A DNA stretch of 64,000 nucleotides from Deltaproteobacteria bacterium (lineage in GTDB: Bacteria > Desulfobacterota > G020345765). The stretch is taken from contig CP070770.1 of assembly GCA_020345765.1 (NCBI GenBank), forward strand, positions 1,130,972-1,194,971. Direction: 5' to 3'. Position numbers and translations under genes: made by a program. Below are positions 10,813-19,444 of the stretch, piece by piece. The number at the start of each line of letters is the position of its first letter. Position 1 is the first letter of the stretch. The notes under the pieces are model-generated. The model had not been told where the DNA came from. It did not search any database and saw only the letters and a list, made by a program, of their open reading frames with translations.

Positions 10813-10841
10813 TTGACATCCAGGCGGTTTGGTATTATATT
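10813..10841 (+). promoter_or_regulatory. sigma70-type promoter of the hrcA operon
   Basis: TTGACA (10813-10818), 17 nt spacer, TATATT (10836-10841). The ATG at 10847 lies 6 nt downstream. Confidence 0.5.
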
Positions 10842-10846
10842 TTAAT

Positions 10847-11866
10847 ATGATGCTTTCCCCAAGAAATAAAAGAATTCTTCAGATAATCGTCGAACAGTAC
10901 ACGGCGACTGCCGAGCCGGTGGGCTCCAAGAAAATAGCCAAGATCTATAATCTTAATCTATCTCCTGCTACCATCCGCAATGCCATGTCGGAGCTGGAGG
11001 AGATGGGCTATCTCAACCAGCCCTATACCTCGGCAGGAAGGATTCCTACTGACAAGGGTTTCCGTTTATATGTGGATAGCCTTCTGGAAATCCGGGGCCT
11101 GAGCTACGCCGAGAAGGAAACCATTAAGACCCAGTACCAACAGGAGCAACTGGACATTAATGAGGTCATGAGGAATACCTCCCGCATCCTCTCGTTCCTG
11201 ACCCAATACACCGGATTGGTAATGGTTCCCCGATTAACCGACACCGTATTCAAGGATATTCATTTCATAAAGCTGAAAGAGCATCTCATCTTGGCGATCT
11301 TTGTCTCCAAGTCGGGGATCGTCCAGAACAAGGTTATTGAATTCCAGGAAACAGTGACTCAGGAGGAACTGGACAAAATTAGTAAATATATCAATGAATT
11401 GCTGACCGGCCTAACCCTGAGAGAATTAAGGGAAAAGATCATTCAGGAAATTAAAAAGGAAAAGGTTCTCTACGATAAACTCCTCTCCAAAGCCTTACGC
11501 TTGAGCAAGCAAGCCCTCGATATGGAAAAGGATACCGACATCTATATCGAAGGGAAGACCAATATTCTGGAGCAGCCCGAATTTTCCGATCGGGATAAAA
11601 TGAAGGCTATCTTGAAAGCCTTTGAGGAAAAGAGAATCCTCATTAAGCTGTTGGATCAGGCCATGGACCGGGAAGGAATTCAGGTCCTTATCGGATTCGA
11701 GAGCGAGTACGAAGAGATTCAGGACTGCAGTCTGGTGGCCTCCTCCTATGGAAGCAAGAGATACGGAATCGGTACCTTAGGGGTTATCGGGCCTACCCGG
11801 ATGGATTACTCAAGAGTAATTCCCTTAGTCAGATACACCGCTGAGTCAATCAGCCGGGTTTTTTGA
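10847..11866 (+). CDS. hrcA: heat-inducible transcription repressor HrcA
   Basis: 'MMLSPRNKRILQIIVEQYTATAEPVGSKKIAK' aligns with HrcA N-termini. The position upstream of grpE-dnaK-dnaJ fits. I moved the start from the track's TTG (10829) to ATG 10847/10850. Confidence 0.92.
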   Translation: MMLSPRNKRILQIIVEQYTATAEPVGSKKIAKIYNLNLSPATIRNAMSELEEMGYLNQPYTSAGRIPTDKGFRLYVDSLLEIRGLSYAEKETIKTQYQQEQLDINEVMRNTSRILSFLTQYTGLVMVPRLTDTVFKDIHFIKLKEHLILAIFVSKSGIVQNKVIEFQETVTQEELDKISKYINELLTGLTLRELREKIIQEIKKEKVLYDKLLSKALRLSKQALDMEKDTDIYIEGKTNILEQPEFSDRDKMKAILKAFEEKRILIKLLDQAMDREGIQVLIGFESEYEEIQDCSLVASSYGSKRYGIGTLGVIGPTRMDYSRVIPLVRYTAESISRVF

Positions 11867-11875
11867 GGATAAACT

Positions 11876-12553
11876 ATGAGTCCTAGGGCTAAAGGGAAGG
11901 GAAAGGAAACAAAGAAGAGGGAGGATGCCGAAAAACAGGAGAAGATTACCCAGGAGGAGGGAGAAGAATTAACCATTCAGGTGGAGGAGGCTGAGGCCGA
12001 GGGAAGTGAGCAGCTGAGTGAGCTCGAGCAGTTAAATAACAAGCTGGCGGAGAAGGATAAAGAGGCCGCGGAAAATTATGAAAAGATGCTCCGGGCCCAG
12101 GCTGACCTCGATAATTACAAGAAACGGATACTAAGAGAGAAAGCCGACCTGTTCAATTACCGCCACGAGGATCTCATCAAGGAGCTGCTCCCTATCATCG
12201 ATAACCTCGAGAGGGCAATTGACAATGCCGGGAAATCCTCGGATTGCTCGGCCTTAGTCGAAGGGGTCGAACTGATCTACAAGCAGTTCGTCAATTGTCT
12301 CGATAAGTTCGGAGTAAAAAGTGTCTCCTCCTTGGGGGAAAAATTCGACCCTGCCCTGCATGAGGCGATCAGCCAGGCCGAGAGCAGTGAACATGCTCCC
12401 AATACGGTCATGGAAGAAGCTCAAAAAGGGTATCTGCTCAAGGACCGCTTATTAAGACCATCACTGGTGGTTGTCTCTCGGCAGCCGGAGGATACTAAGG
12501 CGGCAGAGGGTATAGATATAGAAATAGAAGAGGAAATTCAGGAAGAAGATTAA
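11876..12553 (+). CDS. grpE: nucleotide exchange factor GrpE
   Basis: 225 aa. Acidic N-terminus, '[12 protein letters not shown]' coiled-coil signature, 'FDPALHEAI' C-terminal domain. Confidence 0.93.
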
Positions 12554-12564
12554 AGGACGATAGT

Positions 12565-14406
12565 ATGGGAAGGATCATCGGGATCGATTTAGGGACAACT
12601 AATTCGTGCGTATCGTTAATTGAGGGAGGGGAGCCGGTTGTAATCCCCAATGCCGAGGGGAGCCGCACCACTCCCTCAATGGTAGCTTTCACTGACAATG
12701 GAGAGAGGCTGGTAGGGCAGATCGCCAAACGTCAGGCGGTTACCAATCCGCTGAAAACCGTATTTGCCATCAAGCGCCTGGTCGGCCGGAGTTTCGATTC
12801 CCCGGAGGCAAAAAGGAGCGCGGAGATGTGCTCCTATAAAATCGTCAAGGCTCAAAACGGCGATGCCTGGGTGGAAGTCGGGGAGGAAAATTTCTCTCCC
12901 GCGGAAATATCTGCCATGATCCTTAAGCGGATGAGGGAAACCGCCGAGGAATATATCGGGGAGGAGGTTACCGATGTAGTGATTACCGTCCCCGCTTATT
13001 TCAACGATCGCCAAAGACAGGCTACCAAGGATGCCGGGCGTATCGCTGGTCTCAATGTGCTCCGGATAATCAATGAGCCTACTGCTGCCTCCCTGGCATA
13101 CGGTTTGGGGAAAGGTAAAAACGAGAAGATCGCGGTATTTGATCTGGGAGGCGGAACCTTTGATATCTCTATCCTAGAATTAGGTGAAGGGGTCTTCGAG
13201 GTTAAGTCAACCAACGGGGATACCTTCCTGGGAGGCGAGGATTTCGACCAGCAGGTTATTGATTACCTGGCCGATGAGTTCGAAAAGACCGAAGGTATTG
13301 ATCTCAGGAAGGACCGGATGGCCTTACAGAGACTCAAGGAAGCGGCAGAAAAATGCCGGCAGGAGCTTTCCTCGACGAAAGAAACCGATATTAACCTGCC
13401 CTTTATCACTGCTGATGAGTCGGGACCGAAGCATTTGAACATGAGACTCACCCGGACGGCACTCGAGGGCCTGGTAGAGAACCTAATTGAACGCCTTGAA
13501 GAACCCTGCCAGACAGCAATGAAAGATGCGGAGCTTACTGCCAAGGATATTGACCAGGTAGTTCTGGTAGGGGGAATGACCCGGATGCCTAAGATCCAGG
13601 AGAAGGTTAAGGAAATCTTTGGGAAGGAGCCAAATAAGGGAGTTAATCCCGATGAGGTGGTAGCTATTGGAGCAGCCATCCAGGGTGGAATTTTTAAGGG
13701 TACATTTGAGGATGTCGTCCTTCTGGACGTAACTCCCTTATCTTTGGGGGTCGAGACCCAAGGAGGTATTTTCACCAAGCTTATCGAGAAGAACACCACC
13801 GTTCCCACCCGGGCGCAAAAGGTCTTCTCCACGGTGGATGACAATCAGGAGTTTGTCAATATCCATGCCCTCCAGGGGGAAAGGGAGTTGGCCGCGGATA
13901 ACCGGACCCTGGGGAGGTTCCAGTTAGTGGGTATCCCGCCCGCACCCCGGGGGATTCCTCAGATCGAGGTGACCTTCGATATCGATGCAAACGGGATCGT
14001 CCATGTCTCCGCCAAGGATCTGGGAACCGGTAAGGAACAGTCAATAAGGATAACCGTTAGCAGTGGACTTACCGAAAAGGATATCCAGAAGATGATTCAG
14101 GATGCCGAACAGTATACCGAGGAGGATAAGAAGAAGAAGGAGCTGGTGGAGGTGCGCAATAATGCCGATGGCCTGGTTTATAGTACAGAGAGGTCTCTGC
14201 GGGAATACGGCCAGATACTTTCCGCTGCCGATCGGGAAAATATCGAGCAGGCCCTGGAAAAGACCCGTATTGCCCTCAAAGGTTCCAATTTGGAAGAGAT
14301 AAAATCAGTGGTTGAACAACTAAGTTTCGCCTCCCACAAGATAGCAGAGTTAATATACTCGAAGAGCTCTGGAGAGTCCTACAGCGAGGAAGATACCTCC
14401 GAATAG
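12565..14406 (+). CDS. dnaK: molecular chaperone DnaK (Hsp70)
   Basis: 613 aa. '[12 protein letters not shown]', '[12 protein letters not shown]', '[12 protein letters not shown]' Hsp70 signatures. Confidence 0.98.
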
Positions 14407-14497
14407 AACTTAACCAAGACGGGGCTCGGCCCTCCTTTGCTACCTTATTCTGAAGATATGGTAAATCCAGGAGATACATTTTAATAGCATTCCTGCC

Positions 14498-15613
14498 ATG
14501 AACAAGCGAGATTATTATGAGGTCTTAGGGGTTCCCCGCAATGCCGGCGAGCAGGAGATTAAAAAGGCATATCGACGCTTGGCAATCCAGTATCACCCGG
14601 ATCGCAATCCCGATAATAAGGATGCCGAGGAGAGATTCAAAGAGGCCTCCGAGGCTTATGAGGTATTAAGCAACCCCGAGAAGAGAGGCCTTTATGACCA
14701 ATTTGGGCACTCACTGGGGGGGAGAGGCTTTGGGGGCTTTTCCGATATCGATTTCGGCTTCGGAAGGGGTTTCGATGACCTGTTTGGAGATATATTCAAC
14801 GATCTTTTCGGCCGCCGGTCGACAAGAAGAAGATATGGGGAGCCGGGGGCGGATCTCCGATATAATTTGGAGTTATCCTTCAAGGAAGCGGTCTTCGGAA
14901 CGGATACCGATATCGAAGTGCCCCGGAAACAGGAGTGTGACCAGTGCCGGGGGAGCGGTGCCCGGCCCGGGAGCTCCTCGGAGGCATGTCCCACCTGCGG
15001 GGGGAGGGGCCAGGTAAGCTATCAACAGGGTTTCTTCAGTATTTCCCGCACCTGCAGCCACTGCCGGGGGGAAGGGAGGATCATCAAGGATCCCTGCCTG
15101 GATTGCCGCGGTGAGGGGCAGGTTATGGCAAAACACCGCTTATCGGTAAAGGTTCCTCCGGGAGTGGATAACGGAACCCGCCTGCGGCTTCAAGGGGAAG
15201 GTGAACCGGGGATTAACGGCGGCCCCCCGGGAGATTTGTATGTGGTAATTTCAGTTCATGAGCACCCCATTTTTAAAAGGGAAGGCACCGAGCTTCTCTG
15301 TGAGGTTCCGATAAACTTTGTTCAGGCTGCCTTGGGAGCGGATATTGAGGTTCCTACCCTGAATGGACTGAAAAAGTTGAAGATCCCGCCAGGCACTCAA
15401 TCCGGCGAGGAATTTGTCCTTAAAGGAGAGGGAATCCCCAGCCTTAACGGCTACCGACGAGGTGATCAGCATATAATGGTAACAGTGGAAACCCCCACTA
15501 AATTGAATGCTAAACAAAGAGAGCTTCTGGAAGAGTTTGCCCGAATCAGCGGCGATAAGGTCAATCCCCGGGCGAAAAGCTTCTTGGAGAAGGTAAAGGA
15601 GTTCTTTGGGTAG
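14498..15613 (+). CDS. dnaJ: molecular chaperone DnaJ
   Basis: 371 aa. J-domain with 'HPDRNP', a G/F-rich linker, and four CxxCxGxG zinc-finger repeats. Confidence 0.97.
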
Positions 15614-15627
15614 CGGGAGCAAGGACG

Positions 15628-16197
15628 ATGCCGAGTAGAGGATCTTCCCGGGCCTTTTGCCCCAGTTGCGGAGAAGAAGTAGAAGTCTTCGTAACCCTCA
15701 GCGGGGGTGCCGAGCGGGCCCACTGCTCTCTCTGCGGTTTGGCCCTCGAGGAGCTCTCCGAGCCACCCCGGGCTAAGCAACTGGATACCGTGCTGATCGC
15801 CGAGGACTCTGCCCTGCTCCGCCGGACGCTCTACGATATGTTAATAGAGAACAAACTGGCTAAAAGGGTTTATACCTACCGGGACGGAAAGGAATTCATC
15901 AGCAGCGTTACCGAAGAGATGAAGGAGGGCACCCCGGTTAGTCTGGTAATTCTCGATGTGAATATGCCCGGGGTGAACGGGATCGACGCCGCCCGGATCC
16001 TAAGGGCCCTGGAGGAAAGGCTCCAGAGACCCAAAAAGATTCCCATACTCTTCTTTACCGTGGTGAAATGCGATGAGAGATTCAGGAAGATGCTCGAGCT
16101 CTGTAAGCCGTCAGCTTATATGAATAAAAGTTCAAGCTCCACTCCCGAGCGATTAACCCAGAGGGTGCGCGAGGTAATCAAACGACTTCTGGAATAA
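15628..16197 (+). CDS. single-domain response regulator with N-terminal zinc ribbon
   Basis: 189 aa. 'CPSC'-x18-'CSLC'. The receiver domain has 'LIAEDS', phospho-acceptor context 'LVILDVNMPG', 'FFTV' and 'CKP'. No output domain. Starts 14 nt after dnaJ. Confidence 0.85.
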   Translation: MPSRGSSRAFCPSCGEEVEVFVTLSGGAERAHCSLCGLALEELSEPPRAKQLDTVLIAEDSALLRRTLYDMLIENKLAKRVYTYRDGKEFISSVTEEMKEGTPVSLVILDVNMPGVNGIDAARILRALEERLQRPKKIPILFFTVVKCDERFRKMLELCKPSAYMNKSSSSTPERLTQRVREVIKRLLE

Positions 16198-16300
16198 ACT
16201 CCATTAGCGGTTTCTGCGGGGCTTGTTAACGGGGAAAGCAGTCTCCTTCCTCAGTGCTTGCCTCCTTTAACGCCTCTGTTATCTCCAAAAAGGAGCATAG

Positions 16301-18175
16301 GTGTCGATAAGAACTCCAAAAGCTATCTATCTCATTATTGCCGGGGTAATCTGCGCATGCACTCCCGCCCCTTTGCTCCGGGAGGGAACTTTCATTGAGG
16401 GGATCAATGACCGGGAGGGGCTCCTAAATAGCGCTCTCCGAGCCCAGAAAATGTCTCGCCAGGACCTCTCGTTTAAGAAGGATTATGTGGAAAAAGACCC
16501 GTTCCGCTTGAATATTGTGGACACCTTGCTCTCGGAACCCCTAAAAAGTATCTCCGTTAGCGAACGTTGGCTGAATGAGCTATCACAATTATATGATTCC
16601 GGCCCGGAAACCGGTGTCCCGGCCGATGCATCGGGCGCTTCGCTTACGGAACTACTTCGGTTCACTGTCCGGGAACTGGAATCGGGGGTCGGGGAAAGCG
16701 AGTCTCCGCGCCCCTATTCCCGGAAATGGAAGGGATTGCCAACAGAGTTGAGGAAACCCCTGAATACCCTAATATCGGCCCTGAAAAAGGCCAACCTCAT
16801 GCTTAACGAATCATTAGCTATGCTTTCCCGGAAGGAAATCGAGTTTTTAAAGGAAAACGTCCCCCTTCTGATTACCGACGACGAGGACGAATTGGAGGAG
16901 GAGAAGTATGAGGAGGTTCTGGATTTAGCCGGGAAGGTTGACTGGAATAAGCTCTTCGCCTCCGGGAGGATTATGGCCGCCGGAGTGGACTCGGTTCTGC
17001 CCGAATTAATGAATATGACCTTTGAGAGGAAAGGGGTGGTTTTTGAAACCGAGACCCCTTGGGGTAAGGTAATTGTCGGGGGAGTGGGGGATAACACCTA
17101 CCACAGAGGGGCGGCGTTGATTATCGATCTCGGAGGTGACGACCGATACTTCGAGGAACGGAGAGAAGGAACTCCCATATCCGTTATCTTGGACCTTAAA
17201 GGCAATGACCTCTACCACGGCAGTGATAGCTACTGTCAAGGGACAGGGTTCTTCGGCGTTGGGATACTGGTGGATATAGCTGGAGATGACCAGTATCTGG
17301 CAAAGGATTTCTCCCAGGGTTGCGGTATCCTGGGGATAGGGCTCCTCCTCGACCGGGCCGGAGAGGACCAGTACTCTGGGGACAGTGTCCTACAGGGCGC
17401 CGGGATCTTCGGGATCGGAATTCTTGAGGATCGGGAGGGAAATGACCACTACCAGGCCGGCCGGTTCGCCCAGGGATTCGGGTTTACCCGGGGCTTCGGC
17501 CTCCTCCTGGACGGTGGGGGCACTGACCTTTATTACAGCGGGGGCAGATATACCGATTTCCGGGAAAAAAGACAGTATTACCAGAGCCTTTCCCAGGGAT
17601 TCGGTTATGGCCTGAGGCCAACTGCCTCGGGAGGGATCGGTCTTTTGGCCGACCTCAAGGGGAACGATACTTATATCGCGGATTACTTCTCCCAGGGCTC
17701 AAGCTACTGGTATGCCCTGGGTGTCCTCCTCGATAAGGAAGGCAACGATAAGTATCTGGCCCGGCGCTACTCGCAGGGGGCAGGGACCCATTTAACGGTT
17801 GGGATCCTCATGGATGCAATGGGGGACGATATCTATCGTTCCTGGGGGGTCTCCCAGGCATGCGGGCACGATCTGGCCGTGGGGATTCTCATTGACAAGG
17901 AGGGAGACGACCAGTACTCGGCGGACCTGCTCTCCCAGGGCGTCGGCCACGCTAACGGGCTGGGGATCATGATGGACTATTCCGGGAAGGACAGCTATCT
18001 GTCCCGACAGGACAGGATACTAGGATACGGTGCGACCTCCCGGGATTTCGGGAGTATCGGGATCTTTCTCGATGGCGGAGGAAAGGACATTTATTTGGGA
18101 AAAGGGAAAGACGATTCCATCTGGACCCAGAAAAACTACGGGGTGGGAATTGATGGGTTTAGCGACTCACAATAG
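16301..18175 (+). CDS. putative lipoprotein with ~13 tandem ~26-aa 'DxxGxDxY...SQGxG' repeats (predicted beta-solenoid), family unknown
   Basis: 624 aa. GTG start 5 nt after the aaggag RBS. 'LIIAGVICAC' lipobox-like signal. Repeats such as 'DLGGDDRY','DLKGNDLY','DIAGDDQY','DRAGEDQY','DREGNDHY' run from about nt 17072 to 18130. Confidence 0.8.
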   Translation: MSIRTPKAIYLIIAGVICACTPAPLLREGTFIEGINDREGLLNSALRAQKMSRQDLSFKKDYVEKDPFRLNIVDTLLSEPLKSISVSERWLNELSQLYDSGPETGVPADASGASLTELLRFTVRELESGVGESESPRPYSRKWKGLPTELRKPLNTLISALKKANLMLNESLAMLSRKEIEFLKENVPLLITDDEDELEEEKYEEVLDLAGKVDWNKLFASGRIMAAGVDSVLPELMNMTFERKGVVFETETPWGKVIVGGVGDNTYHRGAALIIDLGGDDRYFEERREGTPISVILDLKGNDLYHGSDSYCQGTGFFGVGILVDIAGDDQYLAKDFSQGCGILGIGLLLDRAGEDQYSGDSVLQGAGIFGIGILEDREGNDHYQAGRFAQGFGFTRGFGLLLDGGGTDLYYSGGRYTDFREKRQYYQSLSQGFGYGLRPTASGGIGLLADLKGNDTYIADYFSQGSSYWYALGVLLDKEGNDKYLARRYSQGAGTHLTVGILMDAMGDDIYRSWGVSQACGHDLAVGILIDKEGDDQYSADLLSQGVGHANGLGIMMDYSGKDSYLSRQDRILGYGATSRDFGSIGIFLDGGGKDIYLGKGKDDSIWTQKNYGVGIDGFSDSQ

Positions 18176-18176
18176 G

Positions 18177-19118
18177 ATGAAAAGGTTATCGGTATTAATA
18201 GCTATCGCTTGCCTGCTTTTTCTTAACCCTTCTTCAGCGGACTCGGAGATAGAAGATGAGACAGCCTCAGGGCTAAGAGAAAAAATAGATGCTTTGGTCG
18301 AAAAGGCCTCATCGGTTGATGCAAGCGGGGAAGAAACCAAGGCCGCGAAGGAGGAGTTGGTGGCCCTGGGCAAGGATGCCACCCCTATCCTAATCGCCCA
18401 GCTTGATACCATCAGTGTTCTTAAAAGTATTGCCCTGCTCGATGTCTTAACGGATATTGGCGAGGAAGCGGTTCCCGATCTGCTCCAGGCGCTGGAAAGT
18501 GAGGCCCCCCGAACCCGCCGTAACGCCGCCTATATTCTGGCAAAGATTAAGGATGAGCGAGCAATCCCGAGCCTGCTCGGCTTCCTGAACGATGAAAAGG
18601 CTGAGCTCCGCAGGATCGCCGCCATGGGCCTGGGCGATTTGGAATACCGGGAAGCGGTACCTCAGCTCATGAAGCTTAGCGATGATCTGGATGAAGGCGT
18701 CAGGCGACATATAGTTATCGCCCTAGGGAAGATCGAGGACGAAGAGGCTACCCCTACATTACTCCGAGCCCTGAAAGACAAATACTTCAGCGTTCGCTTT
18801 CCGGCCTCGGAGGCCCTGGTAAAGCTGGGATCGGCAGCGGTTGATCCCTTGATCTTGACCCTAAAGGATAAGGAATTCCTGACCCAATCCCTGGTCATCG
18901 AGACCCTGGGGAAAATAGGAGATGAAAGGGCGGTTAAACCCCTAATCGGATTCTTATCCAGCGAAGACTGGGGTCTGCGGGGCGTGGCAGTGGAGGCCCT
19001 GGGAAATATCGGGGGAAAGAAGGCAAGAAATTCAATCAAGAAATTATCGAAAAGGGAAAAGAACGGCTTCGTCCGGGAAAAGATCTTCCGGGCCCTGGAA
19101 GAATTAAACTCACAGTAA
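18177..19118 (+). CDS. secreted HEAT-repeat (PBS-lyase-type) protein
   Basis: Signal peptide 'MKRLSVLIAIACLLFLNPSSA'. Repeated 'xAVPxLxxxLxDxxxxVRxxAaxALGxIgD' HEAT-like units. The ATG at 18177 follows the upstream TAG (18173-18175) by 1 nt. The track's 18030 start overlaps the previous gene. Confidence 0.85.
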   Translation: MKRLSVLIAIACLLFLNPSSADSEIEDETASGLREKIDALVEKASSVDASGEETKAAKEELVALGKDATPILIAQLDTISVLKSIALLDVLTDIGEEAVPDLLQALESEAPRTRRNAAYILAKIKDERAIPSLLGFLNDEKAELRRIAAMGLGDLEYREAVPQLMKLSDDLDEGVRRHIVIALGKIEDEEATPTLLRALKDKYFSVRFPASEALVKLGSAAVDPLILTLKDKEFLTQSLVIETLGKIGDERAVKPLIGFLSSEDWGLRGVAVEALGNIGGKKARNSIKKLSKREKNGFVREKIFRALEELNSQ

Positions 19119-19182
19119 ACTTAGCTATATAGAGCGATAAAATAATTGCGTATAGGATGGTATGTAAATACAGACAAATATT

Positions 19183-19396
19183 AAAAATCCTAAGCACTAA
19201 ATTAATAGTTAAAGAGTTAAGGGTGGAGGGAAATAACCAATAAACAAATCTCAATGGCCAAATAATAATCAATAACCAAGTTCCAATAACCAACATAGTT
19301 CTTGTCTTGAGGTTAGTTTGGTTATTAGTTATTGGAATTTGGAATTTATTTGATGTTTGGAATTTGGTGATTGGTGTTTAGAGGATTTAGGATTTC
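19183..19396. repeat. AT-rich long imperfect hairpin element
   Basis: The A-rich arm (aaatcctaagcactaaat...aataaccaagttccaataaccaa) pairs with the T/G-rich arm (ttggttattagttattggaatttgg...ttaggattt). Confidence 0.7.
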
Positions 19397-19444
19397 TCGT
19401 TGATATTCGGGTTTTATCATTTTAATTTAAAAATTTATTAAACG

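Follow-up and report, generated by a model that had tools for sequence, protein, structure and literature searches.

A putative Ca2+-binding envelope beta-solenoid paired with a HEAT-repeat protein, and its relation to known repeat families

Introduction

In RTX proteins, tandem nonapeptides of the form GGxGxDxUx (Pfam PF00353, HemolysinCabind) build rolls that bind one Ca2+ per coil and fold only after export, and the export signal for the type I secretion system (T1SS) is C-terminal. MpAFP RIV (region IV of the antifreeze and ice-binding adhesin of Marinomonas primoryensis; PDB code: 3p4g), a Ca2+-dependent beta-helix by its PDB title, is likewise extracytoplasmic, binds one Ca2+ per turn and folds only after export; its repeat is 19 residues long, and the giant adhesin to which it belongs is secreted by the T1SS and has a flat ice-binding face. 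Among alpha-solenoids, the HEAT_PBS/alphaRep type is represented by the cyanobacterial proteins CpcE/F and NblB. The present study concerns two adjacent genes that recall both groups, in a window (the whole stretch of DNA analysed) of 64,000 nucleotides from a Deltaproteobacteria bacterium (assembly GCA_020345765.1, contig CP070770.1, positions 1,130,972 to 1,194,971). The first gene (16301..18175, + strand) encodes a solenoid protein of 624 residues, here labelled REP, and the second (18177..19118, + strand) a HEAT-repeat protein. All features given below lie on the + strand, in window coordinates.

The D-x-x-G-x-D-x-Y motif of REP fits positions 4, 6 and 8 of the RTX nonapeptide; RTX proteins, however, have nonapeptides in tandem, whereas in REP such a turn comes once in 27 residues, PF00353 does not match, and an N-terminal signal peptide takes the place of the C-terminal T1SS signal. 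MpAFP RIV resembles REP as a beta-solenoid with one turn of the G-N-D type per coil, and it is the nearest known fold, although the match is weak and its 19-residue repeat contrasts with 26-27 residues in REP. Unlike MpAFP, REP is a protein of 624 residues with predicted Sec export; it contains a helical domain and an invariant pocket and has a HEAT protein as its partner. That partner is a bona fide HEAT_2/HEAT_PBS repeat protein which, unlike CpcE/F and NblB, is predicted to be exported and is not cyanobacterial. An earlier reading of the DNA from its letters alone (the sequence-only reading) had described REP as a lipoprotein made of a novel repeat and had proposed a beta-solenoid, possibly Ca2+-binding, that works with a HEAT scaffold.

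Results

The REP gene, taken from the list of open reading frames (ORFs) with its stop codon included, begins with GTG, and a GGAG ribosome-binding site lies six nucleotides upstream (GGAG-N6-GTG). The product is 100% identical to sequence cluster P0001 and has full-length homologues in the thousands. With the expression D..G.D.[YF], twelve strict D-x-x-G-x-D-x-[YF] motifs were found at residues 276, 298, 325, 351, 377, 404, 451, 478, 505, 532, 559, and 591, which are spaced by 22, 27, 26, 26, 27, 47, 27, 27, 27, 27, and 32 residues, against a chance expectation of 0.06 motifs on average and 2 at most in 2000 shuffles of the same protein. A degenerate first copy (GGVGDNTY, residues 260-267) precedes the strict ones and brings the total to about 13, and the units can be set in the register G-x-L-x-D-x-x-G-x-D-x-Y-x5-S-Q-G-x-G-x3. 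The count of some 13 repeats of about 26 residues in the sequence-only reading is therefore borne out, and the span that it gave, nucleotides 17072-18130, equals residues 258-610 and is consistent with the motif positions. Its statement that the next gene starts directly behind REP is equally correct, since the TAG stop codon (18173-18175) and the ATG of the HEAT gene (18177) are separated by a single nucleotide.

The repeat array does not vary freely across the family. Exactly 12 motifs are present in 237 of 303 members and 11-13 in 294, and the spacing ...27,26,26,27,47,27,27,27,27,33 recurs among the commonest patterns. The 47-residue spacing at coil 6, found in all eight of the commonest patterns, corresponds to a conserved insertion of about 20 residues (residues 412-444; 17534..17632), which was delimited by spacing and residue conservation and in which D419, Q432, R439, and S443 are conserved. 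Since the number and the spacing of the coils are fixed, each coil appears to be individually orthologous, and the solenoid appears to be a fixed domain of about 375 residues instead of a free repeat array or an adhesin-like stalk. The identification of REP as an adhesin or as a variable array of repeats was rejected on this ground.

An AlphaFold2 model of REP, built from an alignment of 73 sequences, has a mean predicted local distance difference test score (pLDDT) of 88.4 and a predicted template modelling score (pTM) of 0.90. In the model, a signal-peptide helix (residues 7-19) and a disordered stretch (residues 21-34) are followed by an all-helical domain (residues 38-237; 16412..17011), assigned from the predicted secondary structure, which has no fold or sequence match and in which L46, D55, D66, R69, and P80 are conserved. 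The remainder is a beta-solenoid of 13-14 coils with repeats of 26-27 residues (residues 246-618; 17036..18154), delimited by motif positions and predicted strands; it runs without interruption, each coil having two or three short strands, and its pLDDT is mostly above 90. The beta-solenoid that had been proposed from the letters is thus predicted with high confidence by the model.

When the model was compared with the PDB by Foldseek, no match was found at E < 1e-3. The top match is 3p4g, and it is weak (E 0.047, probability 0.94, target TM score 0.44-0.47, 12-14% identity); the superpositions on the 3p4g fold range over E 0.047-1.2, probability 0.28-0.94, target TM score 0.42-0.47, and a root-mean-square deviation of 8-10 Å, which again describes a weak match. 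RTX blocks and left-handed beta-helices are listed at negligible probability, the left-handed beta-helix acetyltransferases at 0.06 or less.

Sequence searches gave a similar result. In Pfam (hmmscan, E <= 1) only DUF6440 was listed for REP, at E 0.051 and below the cut-off; in NCBIfam there was no match; and against the PDB sequences, phmmer with REP and the 73-sequence profile gave nothing but coiled-coil noise, located in the helical domain. A literature search on the motif and on Zixibacteria, HEAT, and beta-helix found nothing relevant. Known repeat classes were also compared one at a time. The RTX nonapeptide class does not accommodate REP, which has a period of 26-27 residues and no PF00353 match at E <= 1, and T1SS export is contradicted by the N-terminal signals of 220 of 240 members and by HEAT being the only conserved neighbour. 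Right-handed parallel beta-helices (PF13229, PF05048, pectate lyases) were absent from both the Pfam and the Foldseek matches, and the left-handed hexapeptide helix (PF00132; [LIV]-G-x4, 18 residues per coil) had no Pfam match. The repeat had not been recognised as any named family in the sequence-only reading, and neither profile nor structure searches produced the confident match to a characterised family that would contradict this. On its model, REP is a beta-solenoid of a kind so far absent from solved structures.

The turns themselves are strongly conserved. Among 263 diverse members, conservation of both Asp residues of D-x-x-G-x-D reaches 94% or more in almost all coils; D404 in coil 6 stands at 86%. 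Two ladders of about 12 stacked carboxylates, set one coil apart, would need counter-ions, and by analogy with the RTX nonapeptide the stacked Asp residues imply cation binding. It is reasonably probable, on this analogy, that the two ladders bind one Ca2+ per coil, and REP probably works like the Ca2+-bound beta-solenoids of the MpAFP and RTX kind.

A second set of conserved residues does not belong to the repeat. This invariant site in coils 6-11 (D419, R439, D461, Y469, W470, Y490, H497, C521, H523, D524, N552, and R581; 17555..18043) was defined by conservation in the 303 members, which include proteins with a PDZ domain (see below). D524 is retained in 302 of them, W470 and H497 in 300 each, Y490 in 299, R439 in 298, H523 in 297, Y469 in 292, R581 in 287, D419 in 278, N552 in 270, and C521 in 261. 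Most of these residues occupy repeat positions 23-27 and therefore, to judge from the repeat register, should form a stack along one edge of the solenoid. PDZ-type proteins that have no HEAT partner also retain most of them; therefore the strip does not appear to be simply a HEAT-docking surface, and it is better regarded as the solenoid's own putative functional site. The His/His/Asp(/Cys) cluster with its flanking Arg, Tyr, and Trp residues suggests a metal or acid-base pocket.

The HEAT partner, a predicted exported protein of 313 residues encoded directly past the REP stop codon, matches Pfam HEAT_2 (PF13646) at 6e-42 and HEAT_PBS (PF03130) at 2e-28. The HEAT_2 score is 142 bits, in three stretches, against a gathering cut-off of 27.7, and the N-terminus (MKRLSVLIAIACLLFLNPSSA/DS) resembles a Sec signal peptide, so the earlier description as a HEAT-type protein with a signal peptide holds. 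The NCBIfam equivalogs CpcE, CpcF, and NblB gave only 80-91 bits against cut-offs of 220-330. A bilin lyase identity was rejected for this reason, and the partner is most simply taken, from its sequence, as a generic binding scaffold.

Pairing of the two genes was surveyed in 80 related loci, 76 of which are informative after removal of those at contig ends. With the window HEAT protein as tblastn query, a match on the same strand directly downstream of REP was found in about 64 of the 80. Sorting of the same loci by hidden Markov model (HMM) gave 11 REP-HEAT fusions in a single ORF (894-1003 residues), about 58 adjacent HEAT genes, four contigs that end before the partner position, and about six loci without HEAT, so that HEAT is downstream or fused in about 69 of the 76 informative loci. 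In 54 long family representatives, a C-terminal HEAT_2 domain is present in 44 and a PDZ domain in eight, and one carries an N-terminal Ntn-hydrolase domain (AAT/C45) together with PDZ. The suggestion that the solenoid works with a HEAT protein is upheld by these adjacent and fused forms, and the lack of gene-pair conservation that would have spoken against it was not observed. Three of the HEAT-less loci (L080, L082, L083) encode PDZ-solenoid proteins and, since PDZ fusions also occur among the long representatives, HEAT and PDZ look like alternative accessory modules of the solenoid. The window itself holds the three marks of a REP-HEAT module, namely 12-13 coils of fixed spacing, the invariant site, and an adjacent HEAT gene.

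The model of a fused homologue, P0127 (982 residues), has pLDDT 87.8 and pTM 0.87, with a disordered linker of 40 residues (639-677). To judge from the pTM, the HEAT domain would be confidently placed on the solenoid in this model; by Foldseek, its HEAT part matches only generic alphaRep and importin-alpha structures (E 1e-9 to 1e-5).

Several homologues have further domains or settings. P0137 (1198 residues) combines the Ntn-hydrolase (AAT/C45) domain, PDZ, the helical domain, and the solenoid. P0240 (1265 residues) consists of a RibD deaminase/reductase, the solenoid, and HEAT, where the RibD fusion may be an artefact of gene calling or assembly. Locus L098 (G121:C1:1212000-1221000), on a complete Zixibacteria chromosome, encodes a second REP paralogue of 675 residues with no Pfam match; HEAT is not next to it, and it is followed by a 227-residue protein without assigned function and a PorV/outer membrane protein (OMP) beta-barrel-like protein, with a UDP-GlcNAc 2-epimerase gene upstream.

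Signal-peptide-like N-termini were found in 220 of 240 REP proteins and in 51 of 54 HEAT partners. In the window REP, the signal peptide (residues 1-20; 16301..16360) was assigned from the hydrophobic N-terminus and ends in a lipobox-like I-C-A-C20, where cleavage and lipidation would be expected. The AGVICAC string from which a lipoprotein had been predicted is indeed present; it is unchanged in the three closest homologues (72-74% identity), with GVICAC identical in P0002 and P0004. The string fits the lipobox [LVI][ASTVI][GAS]C only loosely, with Cys at position -2, and a lipobox-like string occurs in only 19 of the 240 family members, most of which have plain signal peptides. Therefore, the lipoprotein part of the earlier claim may apply to the window protein and does not extend to the family: REP is possibly lipid-anchored at Cys20 in its own clade, and the anchor appears to be a trait of that small clade. 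Export by the twin-arginine translocation (Tat) system was rejected, since a twin-arginine motif is found in only 5 of the 240 N-termini despite the presence of tatC directly upstream in Zixibacteria; the adjacency of tatC thus reflects synteny, not the export route.

An exhaustive HMMER search at E <= 1e-3 gave 3,727 representative clusters (50% identity), of which 1,938 reach E <= 1e-30; at 90% identity, a word-indexed search gave over 3,400 clusters, the named ones of which are called "hypothetical protein". A scan of species-representative genomes yielded at least 572 matched stretches with a confirmed REP relative. The organism labels among the matches listed are Zixibacteria, Eisenbacteria, TA06, WOR-3, Latescibacterota, Nitrospinota, Planctomycetota, Gemmatimonadota, Stahlbacteria, and Acidobacteriota. 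In the phylum of a Zixibacteria genome, the family is present in 60 of 61 sampled genomes, usually in 1-4 copies; in the phylum of the window it is present in only 7 of 121, with one copy in the window genome.

A quick maximum-likelihood tree sets the window REP and the relative from its own genus (from a metagenome-assembled genome labelled "Deltaproteobacteria bacterium") apart from the other sequences of their phylum and places them among split-form sequences of other phyla. The other same-phylum sequences are open frames of about 850-950 residues that form a clade of their own (Shimodaira-Hasegawa-like approximate likelihood ratio test, SH-aLRT, 93); these long frames fit HEAT fusions, but a weak HEAT match was found in only two. 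A separate origin of the split pair in the window genus is compatible with the tree, though not proven by it, and the position of the window REP may reflect lateral acquisition or old paralogy. Overall, the REP of the window is an ordinary member of the split form, found in a phylum that seldom carries the family.

Upstream of REP, and between it and dnaJ, lies a gene (15628-16197) for a Zn-ribbon receiver protein of 189 residues, which has an N-terminal zinc ribbon of the pattern CxxC...CxxC, a receiver domain (Response_reg, 3.5e-12) and no output domain. A survey of its co-occurrence with the solenoid and the HEAT protein in other genomes had been suggested in the sequence-only reading. The order dnaJ-RR-REP-HEAT-plsY, where RR is the response-regulator receiver gene, is kept in the same-genus genome; the receiver and dnaJ adjoin REP only in the window genus, and the receiver was therefore rejected as part of the module. 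In the census of neighbours, no gene but HEAT was conserved beyond single lineages; tatC, nrdR, and other neighbours follow the Zixibacteria clade only. The tatC gene is directly upstream of REP in locus L001 (5255-6004), where it overlaps the REP start, and in about 20 other loci of the Zixibacteria clade. In L001, a toxin-antitoxin cassette of the ParE type is inserted between REP and HEAT.

The genes hrcA-grpE-dnaK-dnaJ-RR-REP-HEAT form one same-strand string (10813-19118). The only strong sigma-70-like promoter match is at 10813-10841, upstream of hrcA, and the 103-nucleotide gap between the receiver gene and REP contains no promoter-like or terminator-like site, consensus scans being weak evidence in both cases. 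Since the sole strong promoter match is at hrcA and the gap has no such site, co-transcription with the heat-shock operon is possible, and the string from hrcA to HEAT may be transcribed as one stress-regulated unit. RNA-seq runs were looked for, and only sediment DNA metagenomes turned up. Past the HEAT gene, the AT-rich gap of 326 nucleotides (19119-19444) contains a long imperfect hairpin with a minimum free energy of -67 kcal/mol and a z-score of -1.65 against shuffles, which is not clearly beyond composition. A search of the whole window against Rfam gave no match.

Discussion

Taken together, the two genes can be described as the split form of one widespread envelope module that has not been described before and whose two parts occur side by side or fused in thousands of bacteria, most of them uncultured. 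A proposed mechanism is as follows. REP would be exported by the Sec system and, in its own clade, lipid-anchored at Cys20; it would fold as a helical domain followed by a beta-solenoid of fixed length with about 13 coils. The D-x-x-G-x-D turns would bind Ca2+, so that the rod would fold and stiffen only outside the cytoplasm, and a pocket strip on coils 6-11 would be formed by R439, Y469, W470, Y490, H497, C521, H523, D524, N552, and R581. The exported HEAT protein would pair 1:1 with REP, either as a complex or as a fusion, and would serve as a client-binding arm, a role that PDZ may take in a sister subfamily. The explanation that we favour, with a little better than even confidence, is therefore a Ca2+-stabilised envelope solenoid with one functional pocket and with HEAT or PDZ as its client-binding arm; the anatomy of the sequence, the size of the family, the gene pairing and fusion, and the conservation of the site are direct observations here, and the fold is an AlphaFold2 prediction.

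What such a module would do is a more tentative matter. PDZ domains in the bacterial envelope mostly accompany proteases and quality-control factors. The association with PDZ and the one fusion with an Ntn/C45 peptidase-like domain favour a protein or peptide client, so that the binding or processing of such a client in the envelope is a candidate function, put forward with limited confidence. A bolder version is that the module represents a new class of periplasmic enzymes or client-processing proteins, in which His497, His523, and Asp524 (with or without Cys521) would form a metal or acid-base active site, flanked by Arg439, Tyr469, Trp470, Tyr490, Asn552, and Arg581, to which swappable HEAT and PDZ arms would deliver envelope clients; this we hold to be possible but doubtful. 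Several points weigh against these proposals. The stacking of the site and the geometry of the Ca2+ ions are taken from the repeat register and from analogy, the RTX model of Pfam finds nothing in REP even at E <= 1, and the Foldseek likeness to 3p4g is weak (E 0.047). The association with PDZ and HEAT is circumstantial evidence for a protein client, and beta-helix enzymes are usually active on glycans. The conserved strip could also serve to bind a third partner, in which case it would not be an active site.

In a simpler explanation, REP would be a structural element without catalysis, a Ca2+-rigid rod of about 6 nm that is anchored by a lipid or by the helical domain and acts, with HEAT as adaptor, as a periplasmic spacer, tether, or scaffold, the strip being a protein-protein contact. 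The fixed length, the status as a core gene in Zixibacteria, the absence of any match to an enzyme family or fold, and the nature of HEAT and PDZ, both binding modules, would all agree with a rod. Contact surfaces, however, rarely keep His, His, Asp, Arg, and Trp at 98-99% across phyla and partner domains, and no conserved third gene hints at an object to be tethered; a purely structural role thus appears unlikely, though it deserves weight. A catalytic role of another kind, as a beta-helix lyase, epimerase, or hydrolase whose substrate would be an acidic polysaccharide, either of the envelope or extracellular, is suggested by the residues of the strip (R, Y, W, Y, H, H, D, N, R), which resemble those of beta-helix lyases and C5-epimerases, and by the prediction that REP is an exported beta-solenoid. 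Polysaccharide lyases and the AlgG/AlgE enzymes supply the residue types for this comparison: the carboxylate would be neutralised by Ca2+, Arg, and Asn, with His and Tyr as the base and acid and Trp in a stacking contact with the sugar. The searches do not follow, since Beta_helix, NosD, Pec_lyase, and epimerase models of Pfam found nothing in REP at E <= 1 and Foldseek found no pectate-lyase-like fold; nor are genes for glycan synthesis or export conserved nearby, and PDZ and HEAT are atypical partners for carbohydrate-active enzymes. Activity on glycans is accordingly regarded as improbable.

Two further explanations would attach REP to systems already known. The GND-type turn and the top fold match, 3p4g, are what would be expected of a secreted adhesin, ice-binding, or toxin-like repeat protein of the RTX type, but the period is 26-27 residues rather than 9 or 19, PF00353 does not match, the export signal is N-terminal and of the Sec type, where a T1SS signal would be C-terminal, no T1SS genes are nearby, the number of repeats is fixed, and the gene is single-copy and core-like. 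Hardly any likelihood is left to this identity. Only a little more can be granted to the view that REP and HEAT are lineage-specific, stress-regulated factors of periplasmic proteostasis under the upstream heat-shock operon and the Zn-ribbon receiver. It would explain the single strong promoter match at 10813, upstream of hrcA, the lack of promoter-like and terminator-like sites in the 103-nucleotide gap, and the gene order from dnaJ to plsY shared with the same-genus genome; these consensus scans are weak evidence, however, and outside the window genus REP has tatC, nrdR, and others beside it in place of the receiver and dnaJ, which makes the view very improbable.

The REP protein adds a new predicted beta-solenoid architecture with one RTX-like turn per 27-residue coil. 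The fixed architecture, the near-invariant site, and the HEAT or PDZ arm together suggest a specific function in the envelope that is absent from model organisms. If the module were indeed a new enzyme or processing class, it would serve a core function in the envelopes of Zixibacteria and of many lineages of the Fibrobacteres-Chlorobi-Bacteroidetes (FCB) and Planctomycetes-Verrucomicrobia-Chlamydiae (PVC) groups, with no counterpart in model bacteria. The REP family is near-universal in the Zixibacteria samples, is common in Eisenbacteria, TA06, WOR-3, Latescibacterota, and Nitrospinota as well, and comprises thousands of clusters, and yet no Pfam or NCBIfam model, no solved structure, and no literature was found for it. 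A defined function would give an annotation to a "hypothetical" pair that recurs in a large part of the uncultured bacteria.

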